Source: Escherichia coli (GTDB lineage: Bacteria > Pseudomonadota > Gammaproteobacteria > Enterobacterales > Enterobacteriaceae). From it: DNA of 64,000 nt. Shown here piece by piece: positions 6,844 to 64,000 of this stretch. The position numbers were made by a program, and so were the translations under genes. The notes beneath the pieces are model-generated. The model saw only the letters and a list, made by a program, of their open reading frames with translations. It was not told the DNA's origin and did no database searches. The stretch lies in NCBI RefSeq assembly GCF_009931435.1, contig NZ_CP043414.1; one strand, given 5' to 3'. Each line of letters begins with the position of its first letter. Within the stretch, counting starts at the first letter, position 1.

Positions 6844-7079
6844 GTAGGACGGATAAGGCGTTCAAGCTGCATCTGGCGATACGGTGCACAATGCCTGATG
6901 CGACGCTGTCGCGTCTTATCATGCCTACGAGTTCTATGCTCTGTGTAGGACGGATAAGGCGTTCACGCCGCATCCGGCGGTTGTGTGTGGATGCCTGATG
7001 CGACGCTGTCGCGTCTTATCATGCCTACGAGTTCAATGCCCTGTGTAGGCCAGATAAGGCGTTTACGCCGCATCCGGCA
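6844..7079. repeat. BIME cluster of five REP units in alternating orientation
   Basis: GTAGGACGGATAAGGCGTTCA..GCATC.GGCG and its inverted partner GCCTGATGCGACGCTGTCGCGTCTTATCATGCCTAC recur with ~100-bp periodicity (units start near 6844, 6893, 6946, 6993, 7045). Confidence 0.8.
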
Positions 7080-7102
7080 CGCAAACGTAATGGAATGCAC
7101 AA

Positions 7103-17584: not shown

Positions 17585-17644
17585 TCATTAATCGGCAACT
17601 TTGGGTTGCCGCCAAATTGCTAATATCGAGTACGCATGCTTCAT

Positions 17645-17743
<99 letters not shown>

Positions 17744-23489: not shown

Positions 23490-23589
<100 letters not shown>

Positions 23590-23688
23590 TGAAACGATGA
23601 GCAATCTGTAGAGTTTGATTAAGACCTTCTATTTTTCCCGCTTATCCGTGCCCCATCTCCCATTTTCCCTCACCCGCGCCGTCACCGC

Positions 23689-29327: not shown

Positions 29328-31073
29328 ATGATAAAACCGACGTTTTTACGCCGGGTGGCTATTGCTGCTCTGCTCACAGGAAGTTGTTTTAGTGCTGTCG
29401 CCGCGCCACCTGCGCCGCCGCCAGTCTCGTATGGCGTGGAGGAGGATGTCTTCCATCCGGTACGCGCGAAGCAGGGGATGGTAGCATCTGTGGACGCCAC
29501 TGCCACTCAGGTGGGGGTAGATATCCTTAAACAGGGCGGGAATGCCGTTGATGCTGCCGTGGCAGTGGGCTACGCGCTGGCGGTAACGCATCCGCAGGCA
29601 GGGAATCTGGGCGGCGGCGGTTTTATGCTGATCCGCACTAAAGATGGCAATACCACCGCCATCGATTTCCGCGAAATGGCACCCGCCAAAGCGACCCGCG
29701 ATATGTTCCTTGATGATCAGGGCAACCCGGACAGCAAAAAATCTCTCACTTCGCATCTTGCTTCTGGCACACCCGGTACGGTAGCGGGCTTCTCGTTGGC
29801 GCTGGAGAAATACGGCACCATGCCGCTGAACAAAGTTGTGCAGCCTGCGTTTAAACTGGCACGCGATGGTTTTATCGTTAACGATGCGCTGGCAGACGAT
29901 CTCAAAACCTACGGCAGTGAAGTGCTACCAAATCACGAAAACAGCAAAGCTATCTTCTGGAAAGAGGGCGAACCGCTGAAAAAGGGCGACAAGCTGGTAC
30001 AGACGAATCTGGCAAAGAGCCTGGAGATGATTGCCGAAAACGGCCCGGATGAATTCTACAAAGGCACGATAGCGGAACAGATCGCCCAGGAGATGCAGAA
30101 AAACGGTGGCTTGATCACTAAAGAAGATTTAGCGGCCTATAAAGCGGTCGAACGTACACCAATAAGTGGCGATTATCGCGGGTATCAGGTTTACTCCATG
30201 CCACCGCCATCTTCCGGCGGGATCCATATCGTGCAGATCCTCAATATTCTGGAAAACTTCGATATGCAGAAATACGGCTTTGGCAGCGCCGACGCGATGC
30301 AAATCATGGCAGAAGCGGAGAAACATGCCTACGCCGATCGCTCGGAATATCTTGGCGACCCGGATTTTGTCAAAGTACCGTGGCAGGCGCTGACCAATAA
30401 AGCCTATGCCAAATCTATTGCCGATCAAATCGATATCAATAAAGCGAAGCCATCCAGCGAAATTCGTCCTGGCAAGCTTGCGCCTTATGAGAGTAATCAA
30501 ACTACCCATTACTCAGTGGTGGATAAAGACGGTAACGCCGTGGCGGTGACTTATACGCTGAACACCACCTTCGGTACGGGCATTGTCGCGGGCGAGAGCG
30601 GTATTTTGCTCAATAACCAGATGGATGATTTCTCCGCCAAACCAGGCGTACCGAACGTTTACGGGCTGGTGGGCGGCGATGCCAACGCCGTCGGGCCGAA
30701 TAAACGTCCGCTGTCATCGATGTCACCAACCATTGTGGTGAAAGACGGAAAAACCTGGCTGGTGACCGGAAGCCCAGGTGGTAGCCGGATTATCACCACT
30801 GTGCTGCAAATGGTGGTGAACAGCATCGATTATGGCATGAATGTCGCCGAAGCGACCAATGCGCCGCGTTTCCACCATCAGTGGCTGCCGGACGAGCTGC
30901 GTGTCGAGAAAGGATTTAGCCCGGATACGCTCAAGCTGCTGGAAGCAAAAGGTCAGAAAGTGGCGCTAAAAGAGGCGATGGGCAGTACGCAAAGTATTAT
31001 GGTTGGGCCGGACGGTGAGTTATACGGCGCATCCGACCCACGTTCGGTAGATGATTTAACGGCGGGGTATTAA
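29328..31073 (+). CDS. ggt: gamma-glutamyltranspeptidase Ggt
   Basis: ATG at 29328 (MIKPTFLRRVAIAALL...); 580 aa; autoprocessing Thr within ...SNQTTHYSV... Confidence 0.9.
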   Translation: MIKPTFLRRVAIAALLTGSCFSAVAAPPAPPPVSYGVEEDVFHPVRAKQGMVASVDATATQVGVDILKQGGNAVDAAVAVGYALAVTHPQAGNLGGGGFMLIRTKDGNTTAIDFREMAPAKATRDMFLDDQGNPDSKKSLTSHLASGTPGTVAGFSLALEKYGTMPLNKVVQPAFKLARDGFIVNDALADDLKTYGSEVLPNHENSKAIFWKEGEPLKKGDKLVQTNLAKSLEMIAENGPDEFYKGTIAEQIAQEMQKNGGLITKEDLAAYKAVERTPISGDYRGYQVYSMPPPSSGGIHIVQILNILENFDMQKYGFGSADAMQIMAEAEKHAYADRSEYLGDPDFVKVPWQALTNKAYAKSIADQIDINKAKPSSEIRPGKLAPYESNQTTHYSVVDKDGNAVAVTYTLNTTFGTGIVAGESGILLNNQMDDFSAKPGVPNVYGLVGGDANAVGPNKRPLSSMSPTIVVKDGKTWLVTGSPGGSRIITTVLQMVVNSIDYGMNVAEATNAPRFHHQWLPDELRVEKGFSPDTLKLLEAKGQKVALKEAMGSTQSIMVGPDGELYGASDPRSVDDLTAGY

Positions 31074-31080
31074 TATCTTA

Positions 31081-31108
31081 AGCCCTCTCCCGGTAGGTGA
31101 GGGCTTTT
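31081..31108. terminator. hairpin terminator in the 49-bp ggt/yhhY convergent gap
   Basis: AGCCCTC-11 nt loop-GAGGGCT followed by TTTTAG; directly after the ggt stop. Confidence 0.65.
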
Positions 31109-31122
31109 AGATTACAAATTCT

Positions 31123-31611
31123 CTATTTCACCCGCGCCATATAATACGCATCGACATATTCGCCATTACGAAAAGCGTAATTTTTGCCGGTACCTTCTAT
31201 GAGAAATCCGAATTTTTTATAGACTGCGATTGCTGGGGCGTTATCCGCAAACACCGTCAACTCAATACGATCTATCCGTAACCAGTTGTCGCACATTTCA
31301 ATCAATTCGCGGATCAGGGCGCTGGCGATGCCACGGTTGTGCCAGCGGGAGTCAACACAGATACCAAAAGTTGCAACATGACTGCGACGTGGGCCTTGAT
31401 AAGCTTCCACGAAAAGATGACCCACCACGATACTATCAATGCAGGCAACCAGTTGTTTAAATCCCTGGCGATCTTTCAATCTTTCTGGCCACCAGCCTTC
31501 CGAAGGATGAGGTAGTTGTAGCGTGTTGTAATACACCTCCGGTTGGGCGTGAATCTGCCTGATGGCCTCGTAATCCCGTGTTTCTGCGTGGCGTATTACT
31601 ATCTCACTCAT
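31123..31611 (-). CDS. yhhY: GNAT-family N-acetyltransferase YhhY
   Basis: Track ORF extends to 31689; ATG at 31611 gives the 162-aa MSEIVIRHAETRDYEAIRQIH... protein. Confidence 0.85.
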   Translation of the reverse strand: MSEIVIRHAETRDYEAIRQIHAQPEVYYNTLQLPHPSEGWWPERLKDRQGFKQLVACIDSIVVGHLFVEAYQGPRRSHVATFGICVDSRWHNRGIASALIRELIEMCDNWLRIDRIELTVFADNAPAIAVYKKFGFLIEGTGKNYAFRNGEYVDAYYMARVK

Positions 31612-31707
31612 TCCTTTGTCCTCTTTGGGGTAAATGTCCCTTTCAACATCATTGACTTTCACATACGAGTCAAATGCATTTTTTTGCAAAAAGTGTTGGA
31701 CAAGTGC

Positions 31708-31730
31708 GAATGAGAATGATTATTATTGTC
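31708..31730 (+). promoter_or_regulatory. Fur box overlapping the ryhB promoter
   Basis: AATGAGAATGATTATTATTGTC, an AT-rich GATAAT-type repeat array ending 3 nt before the RyhB 5' end. Confidence 0.7.
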
Positions 31731-31732
31731 TC

Positions 31733-31822
31733 GCGATCAGGAAGACCCTCGCGGAGAACCTGAAAGCACGACATTGCTCACATTGCTTCCAGTATTACTT
31801 AGCCAGCCGGGTGCTGGCTTTT
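31733..31822 (+). ncRNA. ryhB: iron-responsive small RNA RyhB
   Basis: 90 nt GCGATCAGGAAGACCCTCGCGGAGAACCTGAAAGCACGACATTGCTCACATTGCTTCCAGTATTACTTAGCCAGCCGGGTGCTGGCTTTT matches recalled RyhB; ends in a GCCAGC/GCTGGC hairpin plus T9; sits in the yhhY-yhhX intergenic region. Confidence 0.9.
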
Positions 31823-31945
31823 TTTTTTGACCTTTCGTTCTCAATTTATCCACGGGAAGTGCTTGTGTTTGTTATGCGCACTCCTGTAGGAACCGCGTCC
31901 GCTTTGCGCTAAGGTGTAAATAACCACCTTAAAAAGGACGAAATC

Positions 31946-32983
31946 ATGGTCATCAACTGCGCCTTTATTGGCTTCGGCAAAAGCACCACCCGTTACCATC
32001 TGCCGTATGTACTTAACCGCAAGGATAGCTGGCATGTCGCGCATATTTTTCGCCGCCATGCGAAGCCGGAAGAACAGGCTCCCATTTATTCCCATATTCA
32101 TTTCACCAGCGATCTCGACGAAGTGCTAAACGATCCCGACGTTAAGTTGATTGTCGTCTGCACTCATGCGGACAGCCACTTCGAGTACGCGAAACGCGCG
32201 CTGGAAGCCGGGAAAAATGTGCTGGTCGAAAAACCGTTCACCCCGACACTTGCGCAGGCGAAAGAGCTGTTTGCGCTGGCGAAAAGCAAAGGGCTGACCG
32301 TTACGCCGTATCAGAATCGTCGCTTTGACTCCTGTTTTCTGATGGCGAAAAAAGCGATTGAAAGCGGCAAGCTGGGAGAGATTGTTGAAATGGAAAGCCA
32401 TTTTGACTATTACCGCCCGGTGGCAGAAACCAAACCCGGGCTGCCGCAGGATGGCGCGTTCTATGGCCTTGGTGTGCATACGATGGACCAGATTATCTCG
32501 CTGTTCGGTCGCCCGGATCACGTCGCTTATGACATCCGCAGCCTGCGTAATAAAGCCAATCCTGACGACACCTTTGAAGCGCAGCTATTTTATGGCGATC
32601 TAAAAGCCATCGTCAAAACCAGCCATCTGGTGAAAATCGATTATCCGAAATTTATCGTTCACGGGAAGAAAGGTTCGTTTATTAAATACGGTATCGACCA
32701 GCAGGAAACCAGCCTGAAGGCTAATATTATGCCAGGCGAGCCGGGATTCGCAGCGGATGATTCGGTCGGTGTGCTGGAGTATGTCAATGACGAGGGCGTT
32801 ACGGTCAGAGAAGAGATGAAGCCGGAGATGGGCGATTATGGGCGCGTTTATGATGCGTTGTATCAAACCATCACCAACGGTGCACCAAATTACGTCAAGG
32901 AATCTGAAGTTCTTACCAATCTTGAAATCCTTGAACGCGGATTTGAGCAAGCCTCTCCCTCCACAGTGACTCTCGCGAAGTAA
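31946..32983 (+). CDS. yhhX: Gfo/Idh/MocA-family oxidoreductase YhhX
   Basis: 345-aa ORF with N-terminal Rossmann motif AFIGFGKS; matches YhhX. Confidence 0.9.
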   Translation: MVINCAFIGFGKSTTRYHLPYVLNRKDSWHVAHIFRRHAKPEEQAPIYSHIHFTSDLDEVLNDPDVKLIVVCTHADSHFEYAKRALEAGKNVLVEKPFTPTLAQAKELFALAKSKGLTVTPYQNRRFDSCFLMAKKAIESGKLGEIVEMESHFDYYRPVAETKPGLPQDGAFYGLGVHTMDQIISLFGRPDHVAYDIRSLRNKANPDDTFEAQLFYGDLKAIVKTSHLVKIDYPKFIVHGKKGSFIKYGIDQQETSLKANIMPGEPGFAADDSVGVLEYVNDEGVTVREEMKPEMGDYGRVYDALYQTITNGAPNYVKESEVLTNLEILERGFEQASPSTVTLAK

Positions 32984-46152: not shown

Positions 46153-48618
<2,466 letters not shown>

Positions 48619-48634
48619 GTTCACTAAAAAATAG

Positions 48635-48663
48635 AACGGGGCCAAATCGGTCCCGTTTTTTTT
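48635..48663 (+). terminator. rho-independent terminator of glgP
   Basis: 9-bp stem AACGGGGCC/GGTCCCGTT (one G-U pair) with loop AAATC, followed by T8. Confidence 0.8.
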
Positions 48664-48712
48664 CGCCTTTATTTCGGAGAAGTGTCCAGAGGGGCAAGGG
48701 GATTCGGGGGAG

Positions 48713-48718
48713 TATAAT
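48713..48718 (+). promoter_or_regulatory. candidate -10 hexamer (TATAAT) for the glgP-glpD cluster
   Basis: Perfect TATAAT 18 bp upstream of the first ATG of cluster gene 1 and downstream of the glgP terminator; no good -35 seen. Confidence 0.35.
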
Positions 48719-48735
48719 TTCGCCATTCAGAAAGA

Positions 48736-50253
48736 ATGGAAAGAATAATGCAAAACAGAAAATGGATTTTGACCTCGCTGATAATGACTTTTTTCGGCAT
48801 CCCCATACTGGCGCAATTTTTGGCAGCGGTTATTGCCATGCTGGGGGCCGGGCTTGCCGCTATTCTTGAGGCTTGCAATTTACTCTTTACGCCAACAATT
48901 TATCTTCTACTCAACATCTTTATGCTGACGCTGGGGGCGATAATCCTATTTTTCTCTGGTCGCGTGTGGGCCGGTGATAGCGCACCAGAAAACAGAGAAA
49001 TAGCCGTCTGGCGGCAATGCTTTTTTCTTTTACCTGCACTGTTAACTCTGGTTGGCTGGATAATCACGCTACATCTGGCAGATTATCAACTTCGCCAGCT
49101 GGGAGCGGGTTGGTTGGCAAATCTTATGCTCCCCTGGCTGGGCGTATTGTTAGTCTCATTAGTCGGTGGTGAGTACTGGTGGATAGTCATTATTCCCGTT
49201 GGCGCGCATATCAGTTTTTCGCTGGGGTACGGCTGGCCAACCAGACATCCTTTAACCGGCACGTACGGGTTACGTTGCCGTAATTCCCTCCTGTTTATCC
49301 TTCTCATGCTGGTTTTTGTCGCTGGTTATCAGGCTTATTTATATAAACAGCTTAATCCTGGTGTTGGTGTACGCGAAAATATTGATACCTGGGCCTGGCG
49401 ACCCGATAAACTCAATAATCAACTGACGCCACTGCGTGGTAAACCGCAAATTCAGTTTACACAAAACTGGCCGCGACTCGATGGTGCTACGGCGGCGTAC
49501 CCAATTTATGCTTCTGCCTTTTATGCGTTGAGCGTTATACCGGAAGATTTCCACACCTGGGAATATCTGGAGAACTCTCGTACCCCCGATGCATATAACA
49601 GGATTGTTAAAGGTGATGCCGATATTATTTTTGTGGCGCAACCTTCCGGTGGGCAGAAAAAACGTGCAGAGGAATCGGGCGTCACTTTGAACTACACTCC
49701 TTTCGCCCGTGAAGCATTCGTTTTCATCGTCAATGCGGATAACCCGGTTAATTCCCTGACTGACCAACAGGTGCGTGACATCTTCAGTGGCGTAATTACC
49801 AACTGGCGTACTGTTGGCGGTAACGATCAGGAGATCCAGACCTGGCAACGCCCGGAAGACTCTGGCAGCCAGACAGTGATGCAATCGCAGGTCATGAAAA
49901 ATGTCCGCATGATCTCGCCGCAGGAAACCGAAGTGGCAAGCATGATGGAGGGAATGATTAAAGTTGTTGCCGAATACCGTAATACAAACAACTCAATAGG
50001 CTACACCTTCCGCTATTACGCAACACAAATGAACGCCGATAAAAATATAAAACTGCTAGCTATTAACGGTATTGCACCGACTGCGGAAAATATTCGTAAC
50101 GGCAAATATCCGTATATCGTCGATGCCTTTATGGTAACGCGGGAAAATACTACGTCAGAAACACAAAAACTGGTCGAATGGTTTTTAATGCCGCAGGGGC
50201 AGAGTCTGGTGGAAGATGTGGGCTATGTGCCGCTGTATCCAACAATGAAATAA
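48736..50253 (+). CDS. fusion protein: N-terminal polytopic membrane module (about 200 aa, 5-6 TM) plus C-terminal PstS-family (phosphate-binding-protein-like) domain
   Basis: 505-aa ORF (alternative ATG at 48748 has better SD spacing); hydrophobic N-terminus; C-terminal half is about 60% identical by eye to the next gene and carries PstS-like motifs (DIFSGVITNWRTVGG; RPEDSGSQTVM; IGYTFRYY). Confidence 0.7.
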   Translation: MERIMQNRKWILTSLIMTFFGIPILAQFLAAVIAMLGAGLAAILEACNLLFTPTIYLLLNIFMLTLGAIILFFSGRVWAGDSAPENREIAVWRQCFFLLPALLTLVGWIITLHLADYQLRQLGAGWLANLMLPWLGVLLVSLVGGEYWWIVIIPVGAHISFSLGYGWPTRHPLTGTYGLRCRNSLLFILLMLVFVAGYQAYLYKQLNPGVGVRENIDTWAWRPDKLNNQLTPLRGKPQIQFTQNWPRLDGATAAYPIYASAFYALSVIPEDFHTWEYLENSRTPDAYNRIVKGDADIIFVAQPSGGQKKRAEESGVTLNYTPFAREAFVFIVNADNPVNSLTDQQVRDIFSGVITNWRTVGGNDQEIQTWQRPEDSGSQTVMQSQVMKNVRMISPQETEVASMMEGMIKVVAEYRNTNNSIGYTFRYYATQMNADKNIKLLAINGIAPTAENIRNGKYPYIVDAFMVTRENTTSETQKLVEWFLMPQGQSLVEDVGYVPLYPTMK

Positions 50254-50278
50254 CGCTCGAGAGAAAGGAATCAGCGCA

Positions 50279-51271
50279 ATGAATAAATTCACCGGTGTTT
50301 TACTATTAGGTACGGCGTTACTGGCGGGATGTGTCGACCGGGAAGGGTACTATAACAGCGTCAGGGAAGAAGAGAGTCATGGACTGACGTCTCTGCGGGG
50401 GCAACCTGAATTACGTTACAGCGATGATTGGTCAAGATGGCCGAGAGTGTACGGCGCTACAGCCTTATACCCGCTGTATGCCTCCGCGTATTATGAATTA
50501 GTACCCGAGCCAAAAGATAAGGATCGAACCTCGCTGGCCTGGCAGGCGTATGGTTTGCAACAAACCCGAACAGCTGAAGCCTACGATAGTCTGATCAAGG
50601 GTACCGCGACGGTTATTTTTGTTGCACAACCGTCGGAAGGACAGAAAAAACGTGCAGAAGAAGCAGGCGTTAAACTGAAATATACCGCGTTTGCCCGCGA
50701 AGCCTTTGTCTTTATCGTTGATATCAAAAACCCGGTTAATTCACTTAGCGAACAGCAGGTCAAAGACATTTTTAGCGGTAAAGTGAGTCGCTGGAATAAA
50801 GTGGGCGGCGGTGACGAAAGTATAAAAGTCTGGCAGCGGCCAGAAGATTCTGGAAGCCAAACGGTTATGAAGGGACTGGTTATGCAAGATACTCCAATGC
50901 TGCCAGCCAAAAAATCCACTGTTATCGATCTTATGGGCGGTTTAATTACCGAAGTCGCCGACTACCAAAACACACCATCTTCCATTGGATACACCTTCCA
51001 CTATTACGTCACACGTATGAATGACAATATGCTCAAAATGCGCAAACAGATCAAACTGCTGGCTATAAATGGCGTTGCACCTACAGAGGAAAATATCCGT
51101 AACGGCACTTATCCGTACATAATTGATGCTTATATGGTGACGCACGAAAACCCTACGCTGGAAACGCAGAAATTCGTCGACTGGTTTTTAAGCCCGCAGG
51201 GACAGCAATTGGTAGAGGATGTGGGGTATGTGCCGATTCATGACGCATCATACGAATCATCAGTGCAATAA
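50279..51271 (+). CDS. PstS-family (phosphate-binding-protein-like) lipoprotein
   Basis: 330 aa; lipobox LLAGC after signal peptide; AAGGAA SD 8 nt upstream; motifs GATALYPLYASAY, DIFSGKVSRWNKVGG, RPEDSGSQTVM, IGYTFHYY align to E. coli PstS motifs (GAGATFPAPVYAKW, IYLGKIKKWDD, RRADGSGTSFVF, IGYVEYAY). Confidence 0.75.
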   Translation: MNKFTGVLLLGTALLAGCVDREGYYNSVREEESHGLTSLRGQPELRYSDDWSRWPRVYGATALYPLYASAYYELVPEPKDKDRTSLAWQAYGLQQTRTAEAYDSLIKGTATVIFVAQPSEGQKKRAEEAGVKLKYTAFAREAFVFIVDIKNPVNSLSEQQVKDIFSGKVSRWNKVGGGDESIKVWQRPEDSGSQTVMKGLVMQDTPMLPAKKSTVIDLMGGLITEVADYQNTPSSIGYTFHYYVTRMNDNMLKMRKQIKLLAINGVAPTEENIRNGTYPYIIDAYMVTHENPTLETQKFVDWFLSPQGQQLVEDVGYVPIHDASYESSVQ

Positions 51272-51873
51272 TGATGAATAAAATCAGACTTTATATTCCT
51301 CCGTTAATTCTTGGTTTTGTTATTGTGCCGTTGTTGGTGTGGCCGACGGTGGTTGCGCTGGCTGCTTCTGTTATCACGCTGAGTTTTCTGGGAGAGATAC
51401 TGTTCTCTATCCCGCTCATGATCAGGCATATTTCGCTTCTGCAATTACAACTATGGTTATCGGCTGAATATGCGCTTTTCTGCTGTGCAATGGTGGGCGT
51501 TGGTTGGCAATTTGCTCGTATAACTCAATCTGAATTGAAAAGCAGACTGCATTGTTGGCTGGTATTTGCACCAGTTTATTTCTGGTTGCTCCTGTGGAAT
51601 ATCATTTTCTATGTCGCGCCAGCGAATATTGCGTTGCTGGAGAATATGCGCAGTTTCTTTCTGACAGTTGTCTGGCTCCCACTAAATTTTTCACCATTTT
51701 GGTCCCAACCGTGGATTGACTTTGTCGGTCCAATAAGCGCACAGCTTGGTTTTGCGTTGGGATATTATTGCCAGTGGCGTAGCAAAAATAGAAGCCAGAT
51801 ACGGAAGTGGAGTGAGTGGGGAACGTGCCTGAGTTTTGTTACGTTGGGTATGATGGCGTGGGCTTTGCGGTAA
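51271..51873 (+). CDS. polytopic membrane protein, paralog of the N-terminal module of cluster gene 1
   Basis: 200 aa; ATG overlaps previous stop (TAATG); segment VGPISAQLGFALGYY resembles VGAHISFSLGYGW in gene 1. Confidence 0.65.
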   Translation: MMNKIRLYIPPLILGFVIVPLLVWPTVVALAASVITLSFLGEILFSIPLMIRHISLLQLQLWLSAEYALFCCAMVGVGWQFARITQSELKSRLHCWLVFAPVYFWLLLWNIIFYVAPANIALLENMRSFFLTVVWLPLNFSPFWSQPWIDFVGPISAQLGFALGYYCQWRSKNRSQIRKWSEWGTCLSFVTLGMMAWALR

Positions 51874-51923
51874 TTCCCTGACTCAAAAAGTAGGTCAGAT
51901 TGTTGACAAAGTGCACTTTGTTC

Positions 51924-52023
51924 ATGCCGGATGCGACATGAACGTCTTATTGGCCTACAAGACCATGCAAATTCAATATATTGCATAAGCCACGTAGGCC
52001 TGATAAGCGTAGCGCATCAGGCA
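51924..52023. repeat. REP pair (BIME) between the cluster and glpD
   Basis: GCCGGATGCGACATGAACGTCTTATTGGCCTAC and inverted GTAGGCCTGATAAGCGTAGCGCATCAGGCA, followed by TTTTTTGTTT. Confidence 0.75.
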
Positions 52024-52085
52024 GTTTTTTGTTTATCATCAGTCTCAGGTCAGATTGAAATCTGACCTGGCCACATTACGTTAAT

Positions 52086-53591
52086 TTACGACGCCAGAGA
52101 CAACCTCTGCTGCGTATACTCCCCCAGCCACTGACTCACACGAGATTGTTGATCCGCATTCAGCCACATGCCTTGTTTTGTGCGACGCCACAGGGCATCG
52201 TCGGCGCGGCGGACCCATTCGTGATCCACAAGGTATTTCAGCTCCGCTTCGTAGAACTCATGACCGAAATCTTCCCCGAGATCGCCTATCGCCCCCGCAT
52301 TGCCGAGCAGCAGTTCGCTGTTGCTGCCGTAAGTGCGCGCGTAGTGACGTGCCAGCGATTCAGTCAGGAACGGGTAACGGCGGCGCAGGCGGGCGGCATA
52401 ATCGTCGCGATCGCCTTCAATGGCACCACCCGGCAGCACGCTCTCTTTCGTCCACGCCGGGCCAATGCCCTGATAATACGGCGTCAGTTTTTCCAGCGCG
52501 TGCTCCGCCAGTTTGCGGTAGGTGGTCAGCTTACCGCCGAATACCGATAACAGCGGAGCTTTGCCGTTTTCATCATGGATATCAAGGGTGTAATCACGGG
52601 TAATGGCCTGCGGCGAATCAGATTCATCATCACACAGCGGACGCACACCGGAGTAGGTCCAGACGATATCGTCCCGGCTTAGCGGCTTTTTAAAGTGCGC
52701 GTTATACACTTTCAGCAGGTAATTGATTTCACTCTCTTCAATCTTCACCGCTTTCGGATCGCCTTTATACTCCACATCGGTGGTGCCGATAATGGAAAAC
52801 TCGTCCATCCACGGGATCACGAAGACAATACGTTTATCTTCGTTTTGCAGAATGTAGGCTTGCTTCTGGGTATGCACACGCGGCACGACAATATGGCTGC
52901 CTTTGATCAGGCGAATGCCATAAGGTGAGGGTAGATGCATCCCGTCGTCGAAGAACTGCTTCACCCACGGGCCGGTGGCGTTCACCAGACCGCGTGCCTG
53001 CCAGCTGTATTTTTTACCGGTATCAATATCTTCTGCTTCTACAATCCACAGGCCGTTTTCGCGGCGAGCAGAAGTGGCACGAGTACGGGTAAGCACTTCA
53101 CCGCCTTTACGCACCACCATCTGGGCGTTGGCGAGTACCAGACGGGCGTCGTCTACCCAACAGTCGGAATATTCGAATCCGCGCTTAATTTCCGGTTTTA
53201 ACACTGAATTTGTGCCAAAACGCAAACCGGTTGATCCCGGCAGGCTGGTGCGTTTACCCAGATGATCGTACATAAACAGACCAATACGGATCATCCACGC
53301 CGGACGCAGATGCGGGCGATGCGGCAGGCGAAAACGCATCGGGAAAGCGATATGGGGGGCCATTTTCAGCAACACTTCACGTTCAGCCAGCGCCTCGCTG
53401 ACCAGACGGAATTCATAGTGCTCAAGGTAGCGCAGGCCACCATGAATGAGTTTTGAACTGGCGGAAGAGGTCGCACAAGCGAGATCCTGCGCCTCCAGCA
53501 TCAGCACGGATAAACCGCGTCCAGCGGCGTCTGCCGCGATACCAGCACCATTGATGCCGCCACCTATCACAATCAGATCTTTGGTTTCCAT
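52086..53591 (-). CDS. glpD: aerobic glycerol-3-phosphate dehydrogenase GlpD
   Basis: ATG at 53591 (METKDLIVIGGGINGAGIA..., FAD motif); 501 aa; track ORF starts at an upstream GTG. Confidence 0.95.
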   Translation of the reverse strand: METKDLIVIGGGINGAGIAADAAGRGLSVLMLEAQDLACATSSASSKLIHGGLRYLEHYEFRLVSEALAEREVLLKMAPHIAFPMRFRLPHRPHLRPAWMIRIGLFMYDHLGKRTSLPGSTGLRFGTNSVLKPEIKRGFEYSDCWVDDARLVLANAQMVVRKGGEVLTRTRATSARRENGLWIVEAEDIDTGKKYSWQARGLVNATGPWVKQFFDDGMHLPSPYGIRLIKGSHIVVPRVHTQKQAYILQNEDKRIVFVIPWMDEFSIIGTTDVEYKGDPKAVKIEESEINYLLKVYNAHFKKPLSRDDIVWTYSGVRPLCDDESDSPQAITRDYTLDIHDENGKAPLLSVFGGKLTTYRKLAEHALEKLTPYYQGIGPAWTKESVLPGGAIEGDRDDYAARLRRRYPFLTESLARHYARTYGSNSELLLGNAGAIGDLGEDFGHEFYEAELKYLVDHEWVRRADDALWRRTKQGMWLNADQQSRVSQWLGEYTQQRLSLAS

Positions 53592-53624
53592 GCTGCCCTC
53601 ATTCACTTTCGTTAAAGCTCATAA

Positions 53625-53642
53625 ATGTTCGTTATCGAACAT
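53625..53642. promoter_or_regulatory. GlpR operator in the glpD/glpE divergent control region
   Basis: Perfect palindrome ATGTTCG-TTAT-CGAACAT, matching the GlpR operator consensus, 34 bp upstream of the glpD ATG. Confidence 0.75.
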
Positions 53643-53702
53643 ATTAGCAAAGAATCGCGCTTTGAGTAACATTGAAAAAACATTTTAGAGTGATATGTAT
53701 AA

Positions 53703-54107
<405 letters not shown>

Positions 54108-54139
54108 CGCTTTATACTGTCCCCTTTTGTGTGGAATAA

Positions 54140-54982
<843 letters not shown>

Positions 54983-54998
54983 TTCCAGGGATTTATAA

Positions 54999-55757
54999 AT
55001 GAAACAAACACAACGTCACAACGGTATTATTGAACTGGTTAAACAGCAGGGTTATGTCAGCACCGAAGAACTGGTGGAACACTTCTCTGTCAGTCCGCAG
55101 ACTATTCGTCGTGACCTCAACGAGCTGGCGGAGCAAAACCTGATCCTGCGTCACCATGGCGGCGCGGCACTGCCTTCCAGTTCGGTTAACACGCCGTGGC
55201 ACGATCGTAAGGCCACCCAGACCGAAGAAAAAGAGCGTATTGCCCGCAAAGTGGCGGAGCAAATTCCTAACGGCTCGACGCTATTTATTGATATCGGCAC
55301 CACGCCGGAAGCGGTGGCGCACGCGCTGCTTAATCACAGCAATTTGCGCATTGTGACCAACAATCTCAACGTCGCTAACACGCTGATGGTAAAAGAAGAT
55401 TTTCGCATCATTCTTGCAGGTGGCGAATTACGCAGCCGCGATGGTGGGATCATTGGCGAAGCGACGCTCGATTTTATCTCCCAGTTCCGCCTTGATTTCG
55501 GGATTCTGGGGATCAGCGGCATCGATAGCGACGGCTCGCTGCTGGAGTTCGATTACCACGAAGTTCGCACCAAACGCGCTATTATTGAGAACTCGCGCCA
55601 CGTTATGCTGGTTGTCGATCACTCGAAATTTGGCCGTAATGCGATGGTCAATATGGGCAGCATCAGCATGGTCGATGCCGTCTACACCGACGCCCCGCCA
55701 CCAGCGAGCGTGATGCAGGTGCTGACAGACCATCATATTCAGCTGGAGCTGTGCTGA
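54999..55757 (+). CDS. glpR: glycerol-3-phosphate regulon repressor GlpR (DeoR family)
   Basis: 252 aa; N-terminal HTH; 3' end overlaps rtcR 3' end. Confidence 0.95.
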   Translation: MKQTQRHNGIIELVKQQGYVSTEELVEHFSVSPQTIRRDLNELAEQNLILRHHGGAALPSSSVNTPWHDRKATQTEEKERIARKVAEQIPNGSTLFIDIGTTPEAVAHALLNHSNLRIVTNNLNVANTLMVKEDFRIILAGGELRSRDGGIIGEATLDFISQFRLDFGILGISGIDSDGSLLEFDYHEVRTKRAIIENSRHVMLVVDHSKFGRNAMVNMGSISMVDAVYTDAPPPASVMQVLTDHHIQLELC

Positions 55758-57337
55758 TCCTGCACGGCTTCCCACGTCAGACCAAAACGCGCCAGGTATT
55801 TGCGTAGCCGATCCGCGTCGTTGACGCTGGCTTTGCCCTGGCGCGAAACATCAAAGAGTTCACGCCCGGCAGCGGAAAGCGATTTTGCCTGACGGCAGAT
55901 AGCGATAACGTGTTCCAGTTGCAGCCGATCAAAGAGGTCGATGTTTTCCGCTTCAGCGCCCAGTAGCTGCTTAAGCGCAGAAGAGCGGCTATCCTGCCAG
56001 TTGTAGCGTAGACGGTTTATCTCATCTTCTACGGTTTCAAGGGTGATACGCCCACTATCGGCAAACGTCGCCATGCGTGTGACGCTGGCAGAAAGCTCGC
56101 GAAAGTTACCGCGCCATGTTGCCTGGGGAGATGTCGCAAAGGCCAGCCAGGCGCGCCTCGCTTCGGTGTTAAAACGCACGCTGTCGCCGGTGAGTGAGGC
56201 GTGGCGCTCCACTTCATAATCCAGGTTCGGTTCAATATCTTCCTGGCGCTGGCGTAGACCCGGCAGGGTGAAGGTCCAGAGATTGATCCGCGCGTACAGG
56301 TCTTCGCGAAATTTGCCTTCGGCAACCAGCTGACGCAAATCGCGCACCGTTCCGGCGATCAGCTGAAAATCACTGCTCACCTGGCGATCGCTACCAAACG
56401 GGTGAAAGGTTTTCTCTTCAATGGCTTTTAGCAACATTGCCTGTTCGTCTGCGCCCAGTTCGCCAATCTCATCAAGAAACAACATGCCGCCGTTGGCGCT
56501 GCGTAATAACCCTTCACGAGATTCCCGCGCCCCGGTAAACGCGCCTTTCACATGACCAAACAGCGCGGACATGGCGGTATCGCCACGCAGAGTGGCGCAG
56601 TTCACTTCCACAAACTCGCCGCAAAACTGATGCCGCGCCTGTTTTAACTCGAAGATGCGTCGTGCCAGAAATGACTTACCCGCACCGGTCGGGCCGTTAA
56701 GCAGGATCGGTGCGCGGGATTTGATCGCCACTTTTTCGATCTGCTCAATCATGCGGTTGAAGTGGGCGTTACGCGTGGCAATGCCGGATTTGAGGAAATC
56801 GAGAGTTTGCTGGCGTTCTTCGGCAAAGCGGCTGGCAATAGCGTTATAACGGCTTAAATCGAGATCGATAATCGTCACCGCACCAGGGCTGTTGGGCTGT
56901 TCTTTTTTACGCGGTGGCGAAGATTGTATTAACCTGGCGGGCAGGTAACGCGCTTCTGCCAGTAGAAACCAGCAAATTTGCGCGACGTGGGTACCGGTGG
57001 TGATGTGAATTAAATAGTCTTCTTTATCAGGTTCGAACGCGTAACCACGGGCGAAATCATGCAGGCAGGCGTAAACCTCCTCGAAATCCCACGGGTTATG
57101 CAGTTCAATCTCAACGCTCACCACTTCTGTTTCTGGCGAAACATTGGCGATATCGCGTTTAAGCGTTTCAAACAGCGAGCGCGAGCGGGCGTCGTGCAAC
57201 AATTCCAGTCGATTGATGACTAACGATTCTTGCTGGCATAGACAGAGTGACGGACGCCATTTCGACCATCGCTGACTGCCGCGCCCGGCATAATCCAGTA
57301 CGGTGCCGACAAAGCCAAAAGCCACTGTTTTACGCAT
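55739..57337 (-). CDS. rtcR: sigma-54-dependent transcriptional activator RtcR
   Basis: 532 aa; AAA+ sigma-54 interaction domain (GPTGAGKS, GAFTGA); divergent from rtcBA. Confidence 0.95.
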   Translation of the reverse strand: MRKTVAFGFVGTVLDYAGRGSQRWSKWRPSLCLCQQESLVINRLELLHDARSRSLFETLKRDIANVSPETEVVSVEIELHNPWDFEEVYACLHDFARGYAFEPDKEDYLIHITTGTHVAQICWFLLAEARYLPARLIQSSPPRKKEQPNSPGAVTIIDLDLSRYNAIASRFAEERQQTLDFLKSGIATRNAHFNRMIEQIEKVAIKSRAPILLNGPTGAGKSFLARRIFELKQARHQFCGEFVEVNCATLRGDTAMSALFGHVKGAFTGARESREGLLRSANGGMLFLDEIGELGADEQAMLLKAIEEKTFHPFGSDRQVSSDFQLIAGTVRDLRQLVAEGKFREDLYARINLWTFTLPGLRQRQEDIEPNLDYEVERHASLTGDSVRFNTEARRAWLAFATSPQATWRGNFRELSASVTRMATFADSGRITLETVEDEINRLRYNWQDSRSSALKQLLGAEAENIDLFDRLQLEHVIAICRQAKSLSAAGRELFDVSRQGKASVNDADRLRKYLARFGLTWEAVQDQHSSS

Positions 57338-57471
57338 CTTAGATATCCTTATAAAAGACGATATTTCATTATCGGCGAATTGGCTTTGCGGGAAATCTCC
57401 GTTTACGGACGTACAGATTTTATCTATTTAAAAACAATGAATTAAAAAATTAATCTGCTTATTTAATTTTC

Positions 57472-57487
57472 TGGCACGGCGGATGCA
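57472..57487 (+). promoter_or_regulatory. sigma-54 promoter of rtcBA
   Basis: TGGCAC-GGCGGA-TGCA: GG (57473-57474) and GC (57485-57486) are 12 bp apart, about 40 bp upstream of the rtcB ATG, opposite the sigma-54 activator gene rtcR. Confidence 0.8.
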
Positions 57488-57525
57488 ATTATCTGGACAG
57501 CAAACAACGAAAAGAGAAAAACAAA

Positions 57526-58752
57526 ATGAATTACGAATTACTGACCACTGAAAATGTCCCGGTAAAAATGTGGACCAAAGGCGTACCGGTAGAAGACGAT
57601 GCGCGTCAGCAACTTATTAATACGGCGAAGATGACGTTTATTTTCAAACATATTGCGGTAATGCCTGATGTACATCTGGGTAAAGGTTCCACCATTGGTA
57701 GCGTTATCCCGACCAAAGGGGCGATTATTCCGGCGGCGGTGGGGGTAGATATCGGTTGTGGAATGAACGCACTGCGAACTGCGTTAACGGCGGCAGATCT
57801 GCCTGAAAACCTGGCGGAGCTGCGTCAGGCGATTGAAACTGCCGTGCCGCACGGACGTTCCAATAATCGTAGCCGTCGTGATAAAGGCGCATGGGAGAAT
57901 CCGCCTGTTAACGTCGATGCGAAATGGGCTGAGCTTGAAGCCGGTTATCAGTGGTTAACGCAAAAATATCCGCGTTTCCTTAATACCAATAACTATAAAC
58001 ACCTGGGAACGCTGGGAACGGGAAACCACTTTATTGAAATCTGCCTTGATGAGTCGGATCAGGTGTGGATTATGCTGCACTCCGGTTCACGCGGAATTGG
58101 TAATGCCATCGGGACTTACTTTATCGATCTGGCACAAAAAGAGATGCAGGAAACGCTTGAAACGTTGCCATCGCGTGACCTGGCGTACTTTATGGAAGGT
58201 ACGGAATACTTTGATGATTACCTGAAAGCGGTGGCCTGGGCGCAGCTTTTTGCCAGCCTTAACCGCGATGCGATGATGGAAAATGTGGTAACGGCGTTGC
58301 AGAGCGTTACGCAGAAAACGGTAAGACAGCCACAAACGCTGGCGATGGAAGAGATCAACTGTCACCACAACTATGTGCAAAAAGAACAGCACTTTGGCGA
58401 AGAGATCTATGTGACGCGTAAAGGCGCGGTGTCTGCGCGTGCTGGTCAATATGGAATTATTCCCGGTTCGATGGGGGCGAAAAGCTTTATTGTCCGTGGG
58501 CTGGGAAATGAAGAGTCGTTCTGTTCGTGCAGCCACGGTGCCGGGCGGGTAATGAGCCGTACTAAAGCGAAAAAACTGTTCAGCGTGGAAGATCAAATTC
58601 GTGCCACCGCGCATGTGGAATGCCGTAAAGATGCCGAAGTGATCGACGAAATCCCGATGGCGTATAAAGATATCGACGCGGTGATGGCGGCACAAAGCGA
58701 TCTGGTGGAAGTTATCTACACCCTGCGTCAGGTGGTGTGTGTAAAAGGATAA
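57526..58752 (+). CDS. rtcB: RNA-splicing ligase RtcB
   Basis: 408-aa ORF matching RtcB. Confidence 0.95.
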   Translation: MNYELLTTENVPVKMWTKGVPVEDDARQQLINTAKMTFIFKHIAVMPDVHLGKGSTIGSVIPTKGAIIPAAVGVDIGCGMNALRTALTAADLPENLAELRQAIETAVPHGRSNNRSRRDKGAWENPPVNVDAKWAELEAGYQWLTQKYPRFLNTNNYKHLGTLGTGNHFIEICLDESDQVWIMLHSGSRGIGNAIGTYFIDLAQKEMQETLETLPSRDLAYFMEGTEYFDDYLKAVAWAQLFASLNRDAMMENVVTALQSVTQKTVRQPQTLAMEEINCHHNYVQKEQHFGEEIYVTRKGAVSARAGQYGIIPGSMGAKSFIVRGLGNEESFCSCSHGAGRVMSRTKAKKLFSVEDQIRATAHVECRKDAEVIDEIPMAYKDIDAVMAAQSDLVEVIYTLRQVVCVKG

Positions 58753-59772
<1,020 letters not shown>

Positions 59773-59784
59773 TATAAAGATGTA

Positions 59785-59810
59785 AGCCGGATCCGACGTA
59801 TTATCCGGCT
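59785..59810. terminator. hairpin between convergent rtcA and malT
   Basis: AGCCGGAT-10 nt loop-ATCCGGCT, 8-bp stem, in the 42-bp gap. Confidence 0.6.
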
Positions 59811-59814
59811 AAAC

Positions 59815-62526
<2,712 letters not shown>

Positions 62527-62642
62527 TCACTTCACTGTGGAAAATGAGGAAATATTATTTTTTTTGCGCTTCGTAATTAATGGTTATAAGGTCGGCCAGA
62601 AACCCTTCTAATGCAAGCGATGACGTTTTTTTATGTGTCTGA

Positions 62643-62662
62643 ATTTGCACTGTGTCACAATT
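62643..62662 (-). promoter_or_regulatory. possible CRP site upstream of malT
   Basis: ATTTGCACTGTGTCACAATT contains a good TCACA half-site and a degenerate partner, about 125 bp upstream of the malT ATG. Confidence 0.4.
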
Positions 62663-63030
62663 CCAAATGTTTATTAACAACTCACCTAATAACGACGCTG
62701 ATGCAGCGTGAATACTGGGTTTTACGGTATTTTCCTCATGTTCATCAGTTTCATTTAAGCAAGGGAGTCTTCTCAATTCCTGATGAAAGAGCCATCTAAA
62801 AAGAGGATCTTAATAAACCTATTAAGAATGAGATGGAGCAAACTGAATGTTTTACTTATGAAACTGTTTCACTCCTTTACTTAATTTATAGAGTTACCTT
62901 CCGCCTTTTGAAAATACACAACGGCCATTTTTTGCACTTAGATACAGATTTTCTGCGCTGTATGGCATTGATTTGCTGCTAATCCTGTGGATTGCACTAG
63001 GTTTAAGTGGTCGAGATCACATTTCCTTGC

Positions 63031-63072
63031 TCATCCCCGCAACTCCTCCCTGCCTAATCCCCCGCAGGATGA
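63031..63072 (+). promoter_or_regulatory. MalT boxes of the malPQ promoter
   Basis: Three GGA(T/G)GA hexamers: TCATCC (63031-63036, inverted), TCCTCC (63044-63049, inverted) and GGATGA (63067-63072), 70-115 bp upstream of malP. Confidence 0.7.
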
Positions 63073-63119
63073 GGAAGGTCAACATCGAGCCTGGCAAACT
63101 AGCGATAACGTTGTGTTGA

Positions 63120-64000
<881 letters not shown>

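Follow-up and report, generated by a model that had tools for sequence, protein, structure and literature searches.

The window analysed here, the whole 64,000-nt stretch of Escherichia coli DNA, carries the genes nikA ... zntA ... ftsYEX rpoH liv ugp yhhA ggt yhhY ryhB yhhX yhhW, followed after yhhW by gntRKU asd glgBXCAP glpD ... rtc malT, which is the order of the E. coli chromosome. The locus under study is the small RNA gene ryhB, located between the divergent upstream gene yhhY and the downstream gene yhhX. A reading made from the letters alone (the sequence-only reading) had placed a RyhB small RNA in this yhhY–yhhX intergenic region, and the location was borne out by the RefSeq annotation of K-12 and of E. 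coli RMDEC465, as well as by the Pfam domains of both flanking proteins. The features of the locus are as follows:

31123–31611, minus strand: yhhY, GNAT N-acetyltransferase, divergent upstream gene (RefSeq annotation of matching genomes; Pfam Acetyltransf_1, 1.9e-16)
31697–31702, plus strand: −35 hexamer TGGACA (promoter scan; identical to K-12)
31706–31724, no strand assigned: secondary overlapping Fur-like site, 14/19, offset by 6 bp (relaxed consensus scan)
31712–31730, no strand assigned: main Fur box GAGAATGATTATTATTGTC, 16/19 to the consensus, read on the minus strand
31721–31726, plus strand: −10 hexamer TATTAT, ending 6 nt before the G at 31733 (promoter scan)
31733–31822, plus strand: RyhB sRNA, identical to K-12 ryhB (b4451); RF00057, 83.1 bits
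31770–31778, plus strand: sodB-pairing block, RyhB nt 38–46 (GACAUUGCU), a 9-bp complement to sodB
31771–31788, plus strand: tandem 9-nt units ACATTGCTC ACATTGCTT, read from the sequence, forming the conserved single-stranded core
31793–31800, plus strand: A/U-rich linker UAUUACUU, just 5′ of the terminator, unpaired in the MFE and centroid folds
31801–31828, plus strand: Rho-independent terminator, hairpin 31801–31819 (AGCCAGC-CGGGT-GCTGGCT) plus T-run
31946–32983, plus strand: yhhX, Gfo/Idh/MocA-family oxidoreductase, downstream gene (annotation; Pfam GFO_IDH_MocA and its C-terminal domain)

The 90-nt form of RyhB, at 31733–31822 on the plus strand, reads GCGATCAGGAAGACCC...GCTGGCTTTT and is an exact string match to the K-12 RNA. 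Alignment against ryhB of NC_000913.3 revealed zero substitutions over 31666–31818, a stretch that takes in promoter, Fur box and the RNA as far as the terminator stem. The RefSeq feature for ryhB in K-12 is 95 nt long, and its equivalent here occupies 31733–31828 owing to one extra T. In an Rfam 15 scan of the whole window, RF00057 (RyhB) was detected at 31762–31826 with 83.1 bits against a gathering score of 55 (E = 3.6e-14). This match spans positions 1–67 of the 67 in the model and is not truncated, the model itself representing just the 3′ two thirds of the RNA. Within it, the conserved core GCACGACAUUGCUCACAUUGCUUCCAGUAUUA agrees with the RF00057 consensus in all of model columns 1–36 and is identical to K-12. 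The alignment, the string comparison and the family match thus bear out the earlier claim that RyhB is present in full. Two checks had been proposed together with that claim, a covariance-model scan and a search for mismatches in the seed region. Both were run; the Rfam score lies well above the threshold, zero mismatches were found in the conserved core, and the whole RNA is free of substitutions against K-12. No second RyhB-like sequence was found by the Rfam scan in the 64-kb window, even at E values up to 1.

On every feature tested, 31733–31822 is, by its sequence, an intact E. coli ryhB orthologue and a member of RF00057. The analysis shows directly its sequence identity to the K-12 gene, the anatomy of promoter, Fur sites and terminator, the family match, the synteny, the extreme conservation and the complementarity to sodB of K-12. 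We regard it as practically certain that the locus is the functional ryhB gene of an E. coli strain, encoding a Fur-repressed iron-sparing sRNA, with the function carried over from the identical K-12 RNA; the sequence holds no counter-evidence. The gene is already known, RyhB being among the best-studied bacterial sRNAs, and nothing in it is new biologically; the earlier description of a well-characterised RNA of modest novelty was correct, with "modest" if anything generous. The discovery papers on RyhB are reportedly those of Argaman et al. 2001, Wassarman et al. 2001, Massé & Gottesman 2002 and Massé et al. 2005.

The ryhB promoter, composed of TGGACA, an 18-nt spacer and TATTAT, matches the consensus at 10 of 12 positions and was the sole sigma-70-like site detected by the promoter scan on either strand of 31300–32200. 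The G at 31733, where the RNA annotated in K-12 begins, was taken as the transcription start (+1). When the window was scanned with the Fur consensus GATAATGATAATCATTATC, the box at 31712–31730 was the only match with three or fewer mismatches in 64 kb, and 100 shuffles yielded none. This box extends over the −10 hexamer to within 3 bp of the +1 G. The Fur sites also display an array of GATAAT-like hexamers (GAGAAT/GATTAT/ATTATT/ATTGTC). An AT-rich Fur-box array overlapping the promoter had been proposed from the letters alone, and it was recovered as the 16/19 site over the −10 hexamer together with the 14/19 site lying 6 bp off. In K-12, the Fur cluster of ryhB has been described with 25.2 bits, four sites in 31 bp, a centre at −15 and a positive gel shift (PMC2189734). 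The main Fur box, identical in sequence, corresponds to this gel-shift-verified cluster, and the 14/19 site and the hexamer array are consistent with the clustered overlapping Fur sites of that study. The start codon of yhhY is about 100 bp away, with the Fur cluster on its upstream side, and no promoter-like site for yhhY was detected on the minus strand of the 31612–31732 spacer in the promoter scans. From its position, Fur could in principle act on yhhY too.

RyhB is predicted to fold into a stem-loop at the 5′ end and the terminator, with a weakly paired region in the centre. The minimum free energy of the whole RNA was no better than that of shuffled sequences (z = −0.67), so that folding energy lends no support; this unremarkable value is expected because the core is meant to be single-stranded. 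The terminator scan identified a 7-bp hairpin at 31801–31819 with five G–C pairs, followed by a T-run at 31819–31828 that amounts to 10 T when the last stem base is counted and 9 T beyond the stem, in agreement with the hairpin and T-tract reported earlier. The predicted folding energy of the terminator is −11.5 kcal/mol for both the 9-T and the 10-T versions. The interval originally given for the gene, 31708–31822, captured ryhB correctly, although the −35 hexamer falls outside its start and the T-run goes on to 31828. In total, the terminator scan found two sites against 1.0 ± 0.9 expected. The second, a terminator-like hairpin at 31851–31867, was rejected, its stem having just three G–C pairs and the structure not being conserved in K-12, where the loop carries an indel and a T of the T-run is replaced by C.

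PMC5558911 gives a Rho-independent terminator with a run of at least seven U as a hallmark of Hfq-binding sRNAs, and the RyhB terminator displays it, with its 7-bp hairpin followed by 9 more T. The terminal poly-U is needed for Hfq binding, and 3′-extended read-through RNAs fail to bind Hfq (PMC4509938). The concept of an Hfq-binding module comes from the same work, and on that model the linker UAUUACUU would be the internal part of such a module. A length variant of the core was observed in the clinical E. coli genome 23AR0151 (NZ_CP195448.1, about 232–240 of the matched stretch, compare window 31771–31788), which carries three copies of ACATTGCTC/T and not two. This 9-nt expansion in the target-pairing core is either a natural variant or an assembly error, and it would lengthen the seed region.

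Target pairing was assessed against the sodB leader of K-12, the strain's own sodB lying outside the window. RyhB nt 38–46 form nine of nine Watson–Crick pairs with positions −4 to +5 of K-12 sodB (AGCAAUGUC), across the AUG. A complement of this length is reached by 2.3% of 2,000 shuffles, a modest significance on its own. The same nt 38–46 block was recovered by an energy-based duplex limited to the RyhB core. A full-length RNAduplex prediction between RyhB and the sodB leader was dropped, as its long duplex was artificial, took no account of intramolecular structure and outscored the shuffles only marginally (67 of 1,000); the core-restricted duplex and a longest-perfect-complement test were used in its place.

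In K-12, Fe2+-Fur represses ryhB, the repression is lifted on iron starvation, and Hfq is bound to both RNAs; RyhB pairs with about 20 mRNAs of iron-using proteins, including sodB and sdhC, causing a translation block and rapid decay through the RNase E degradosome (PMC8544716). As RNA and control region are both identical to their K-12 counterparts, this published mechanism transfers to the window copy. By analogy with that identical RNA, the strain would be expected to show repression by Fur, binding of RyhB by Hfq, repression of the targets and decay through RNase E. Under iron-replete conditions, Fe2+-Fur dimers on the overlapping sites at 31706–31730 would cover the −10 hexamer, nearly reach the start and exclude RNA polymerase. 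When iron is scarce, Fur would leave the DNA and the sigma-70 promoter would fire from the G at 31733. Transcription would end at the hairpin and T-run (31801–31828), giving an RNA of about 90 nt, which Hfq would stabilise by binding the 3′ poly-U tail and the A/U-rich linker. Through its single-stranded core (approximately nt 34–60), RyhB would then pair with mRNAs such as sodB and sdhCDAB, which encode non-essential iron-using proteins, at the regions where their translation is initiated. This pairing would block ribosome binding and, with Hfq, recruit RNase E and the degradosome, so that the mRNA is destroyed and iron is spared.

The ryhB locus, assessed as a 141-bp region containing promoter and RNA, was found in 5,424 of 5,426 complete E. 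coli genomes, on chromosomes only, with a median copy number of one per genome. Among the 5,424 genomes with a match, 5,413 are at least 99% identical over this region. Relative to K-12, the promoter and Fur box are identical at 37 of 37 positions and the RNA at 95 of 96 (the extra T), and identities are 97.6% in the yhhY-side spacer, 95.7% in the ryhB–yhhX spacer, 96.3% in yhhX and 80.4% in yhhY. On these alignments, an invariant sRNA gene amid a variable neighbourhood is the signature of strong purifying selection on ryhB. The ryhB region went unmatched in two of the 5,426 complete genomes and matched at three places in at least one; these absent and multi-copy cases are possible deletions and duplications.

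The sole difference from K-12 within the gene is the length of the T-run, with 10 T here and 9 in both K-12 and RMDEC465, the closest genome. The 10-T allele is a minority form, present in about 38 of the 5,424 genomes: 26 match all 141 nt, and about 12 more, mostly O55:H7, match over the full length at 98.6–99.3%. The alignments of the other genomes stop at the ninth T of the run. The 10-T allele is scattered among strains that are unrelated, a pattern compatible with either slippage or a sequencing error in the homopolymer.

The genes beyond ryhB were also compared. Right beside the invariant ryhB, yhhY is hypervariable, and the YhhY protein is 82% identical in amino acids to its K-12 counterpart. 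The yhhY allele of the window (31123–31520, minus strand, the 3′ four fifths of the gene) is at least 95% identical in just 57 of the 5,426 complete E. coli genomes, while 2,251 genomes match at 80–90% and about 3,000 have no megablast match. The divergence from K-12 ends within yhhY, about 90 bp from its 5′ end; recombination may have set this edge, in connection with the variable island beyond the gene. Here, ggt directly adjoins yhhY (junction 31073–31123), as in RMDEC465, whereas K-12 has yhhZ at this junction. In K-12, yhhZ presumably starts a yhhZ-yrhA-IS1-yrhB segment, of which yhhZ alone was seen in the annotation; the K-12 segment beyond yhhY, from yhhZ onward, is absent from the window.

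Over 16–24 kb of the window, the best genome matches are 98.3–98.8% identical. The region 48000–64000, which contains the end of glgP, two PstS-family genes, glpD ... rtcBA/rtcR and malT, matches 5,368 E. coli records at 90–95%, the best record (a goat isolate) reaching 98.8%; this part has a less common haplotype than the remainder of the window. Furthermore, a REP/BIME-type repeat cluster was identified at 6847–7082 between tusA and zntA, with Rfam naRNA4 (RF02564) scores of 67.5, 58.4 and 34.1 bits, and further sub-threshold naRNA4 matches occur at 17638–17675 and 23558–23595. At the tusA–zntA repeat site, RMDEC465 carries an inserted IS621 transposase gene together with a hypothetical ORF. 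Sub-threshold matches to Rfam ES036 were observed at 51959–52001 (35.4 bits against a gathering score of 37.6) and also at 23511–23553.

The closest known system is ryhB of K-12 MG1655 (b4451, alias sraI; NC_000913.3, 3580922–3581016, minus strand), which has the same promoter, Fur box, RNA, terminator hairpin and yhhY/yhhX flanks. It differs from the window in having 9 T and not 10, a yhhY that is just 80% identical, and the yhhZ-side island beyond yhhY, which is present in K-12 and absent here. Other Fur-controlled iron-sparing sRNAs, such as PrrF1/PrrF2 of Pseudomonas, follow the same logic, being repressed by Fur and lowering iron-using proteins; FsrA, IsrR and BrrF belong to this group too. 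These sRNAs are unrelated in sequence to RyhB and are functional analogues, not family members. Within RF00057, Klebsiella ryhB and ryhB-2 and Salmonella RyhB-1/RfrA and RyhB-2/IsrE share the core, the terminator architecture and Fur control. The Klebsiella and Salmonella genes have a different promoter and 5′ part, whereas the window copy is of the E. coli type throughout. The Klebsiella ryhB orthologue also adjoins yhhY, as here (PMC3415461; PMC3423075); on the other side it is flanked by an ORF with a bactofilin domain, and its promoter shares 72.4% identity with the E. coli one (PMC3423075).

Among the alternative explanations, one is compatible with the main reading. It holds that the Fur-controlled ryhB promoter also makes yhhX mRNA, with ryhB serving at the same time as a leader and its leaky terminator setting the ratio of sRNA to yhhX message, and we place its chances slightly below even. 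The yhhX gene starts 117 bp past the T-run on the same strand, and no sigma-70-like site was detected in this 117-bp ryhB–yhhX spacer (31829–31945) at a threshold of at least 9/12 or at least 8/12, although such consensus scans miss weak or non-sigma-70 promoters. Plasmid assays measured about 20% read-through at the K-12 ryhB terminator, in a study which states that ryhB "seems to be co-transcribed" with yhhX, this not having been shown experimentally (PMC4509938). In a 2022 transcriptome study, yhhX mRNA rose in iron-poor medium, and the rise was lost in a ryhB deletion that also removes the promoter (PMC8896160). On the other side, the ryhB–yhhX spacer is less conserved than ryhB itself. 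In addition, Morita et al. (PMC4509938) reported that stress improves termination, which would leave less read-through exactly when the promoter is on, and the extra T found here should favour termination, if it has any effect.

A comparable arrangement is sgrS–setA, in which, as in ryhB–yhhX, a protein gene on the same strand directly follows an Hfq-dependent sRNA gene whose Rho-independent terminator is leaky (PMC4509938). Co-transcription has been demonstrated for sgrS–setA and suggested for ryhB–yhhX (PMC4509938, PMC8896160). More speculatively, and in our judgement rather unlikely, ryhB–yhhX could be a Fur-controlled sRNA–mRNA operon with the terminator as a regulated gate, in which the length of the T-run (10 T here, against 9 in the majority of strains) would shift the balance between functional, Hfq-binding RyhB and yhhX message made by read-through.

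The two remaining alternatives are both extremely improbable. Paralogous ryhB copies do occur in other enterobacteria (PMC3415461; PMC4211561), and a silent or decaying copy, or a paralogue of the Salmonella RyhB-2/IsrE or Klebsiella ryhB-2 type in place of a working orthologue, was therefore considered; it is excluded here because of the perfect identity to K-12 (zero substitutions in promoter, Fur box and RNA) and the orthologous position between yhhY and yhhX, and this copy is the sole one in the window, as in the median E. coli genome. Protein coding was considered on account of a 92-aa ORF at 31634–31912 (plus strand) that runs through ryhB in the mechanical ORF list, and it was rejected, as the ORF has no Pfam match, contains two single-base indels relative to K-12 (31819 and 31857) that would shift its frame, continues to 31912 although the conserved block stops at the terminator (0 substitutions over 31666–31818, 5 differences over 31831–31895), and covers an RNA without any ATG.

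With this ORF set aside, the preferred reading of the locus as the functional ryhB gene bears mainly on annotation. The sequence-only reading had described RyhB as unrepresented among the open reading frames; in the raw list, the gene is in fact overlapped by the spurious 92-aa ORF. In the PGAP feature tables of the matching RefSeq E. coli genomes examined, ryhB is missing, whereas the curated K-12 record carries it as an ncRNA; the gene is systematically missing from automatic annotation. The value of the finding is therefore mainly one of annotation hygiene: marking ryhB stops the spurious ORF from passing as a gene, and correct marking also pinpoints the Fur-regulated promoter of the region. 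For the biology of the locus, one loose end of some interest is the expression of yhhX by read-through from the ryhB promoter.
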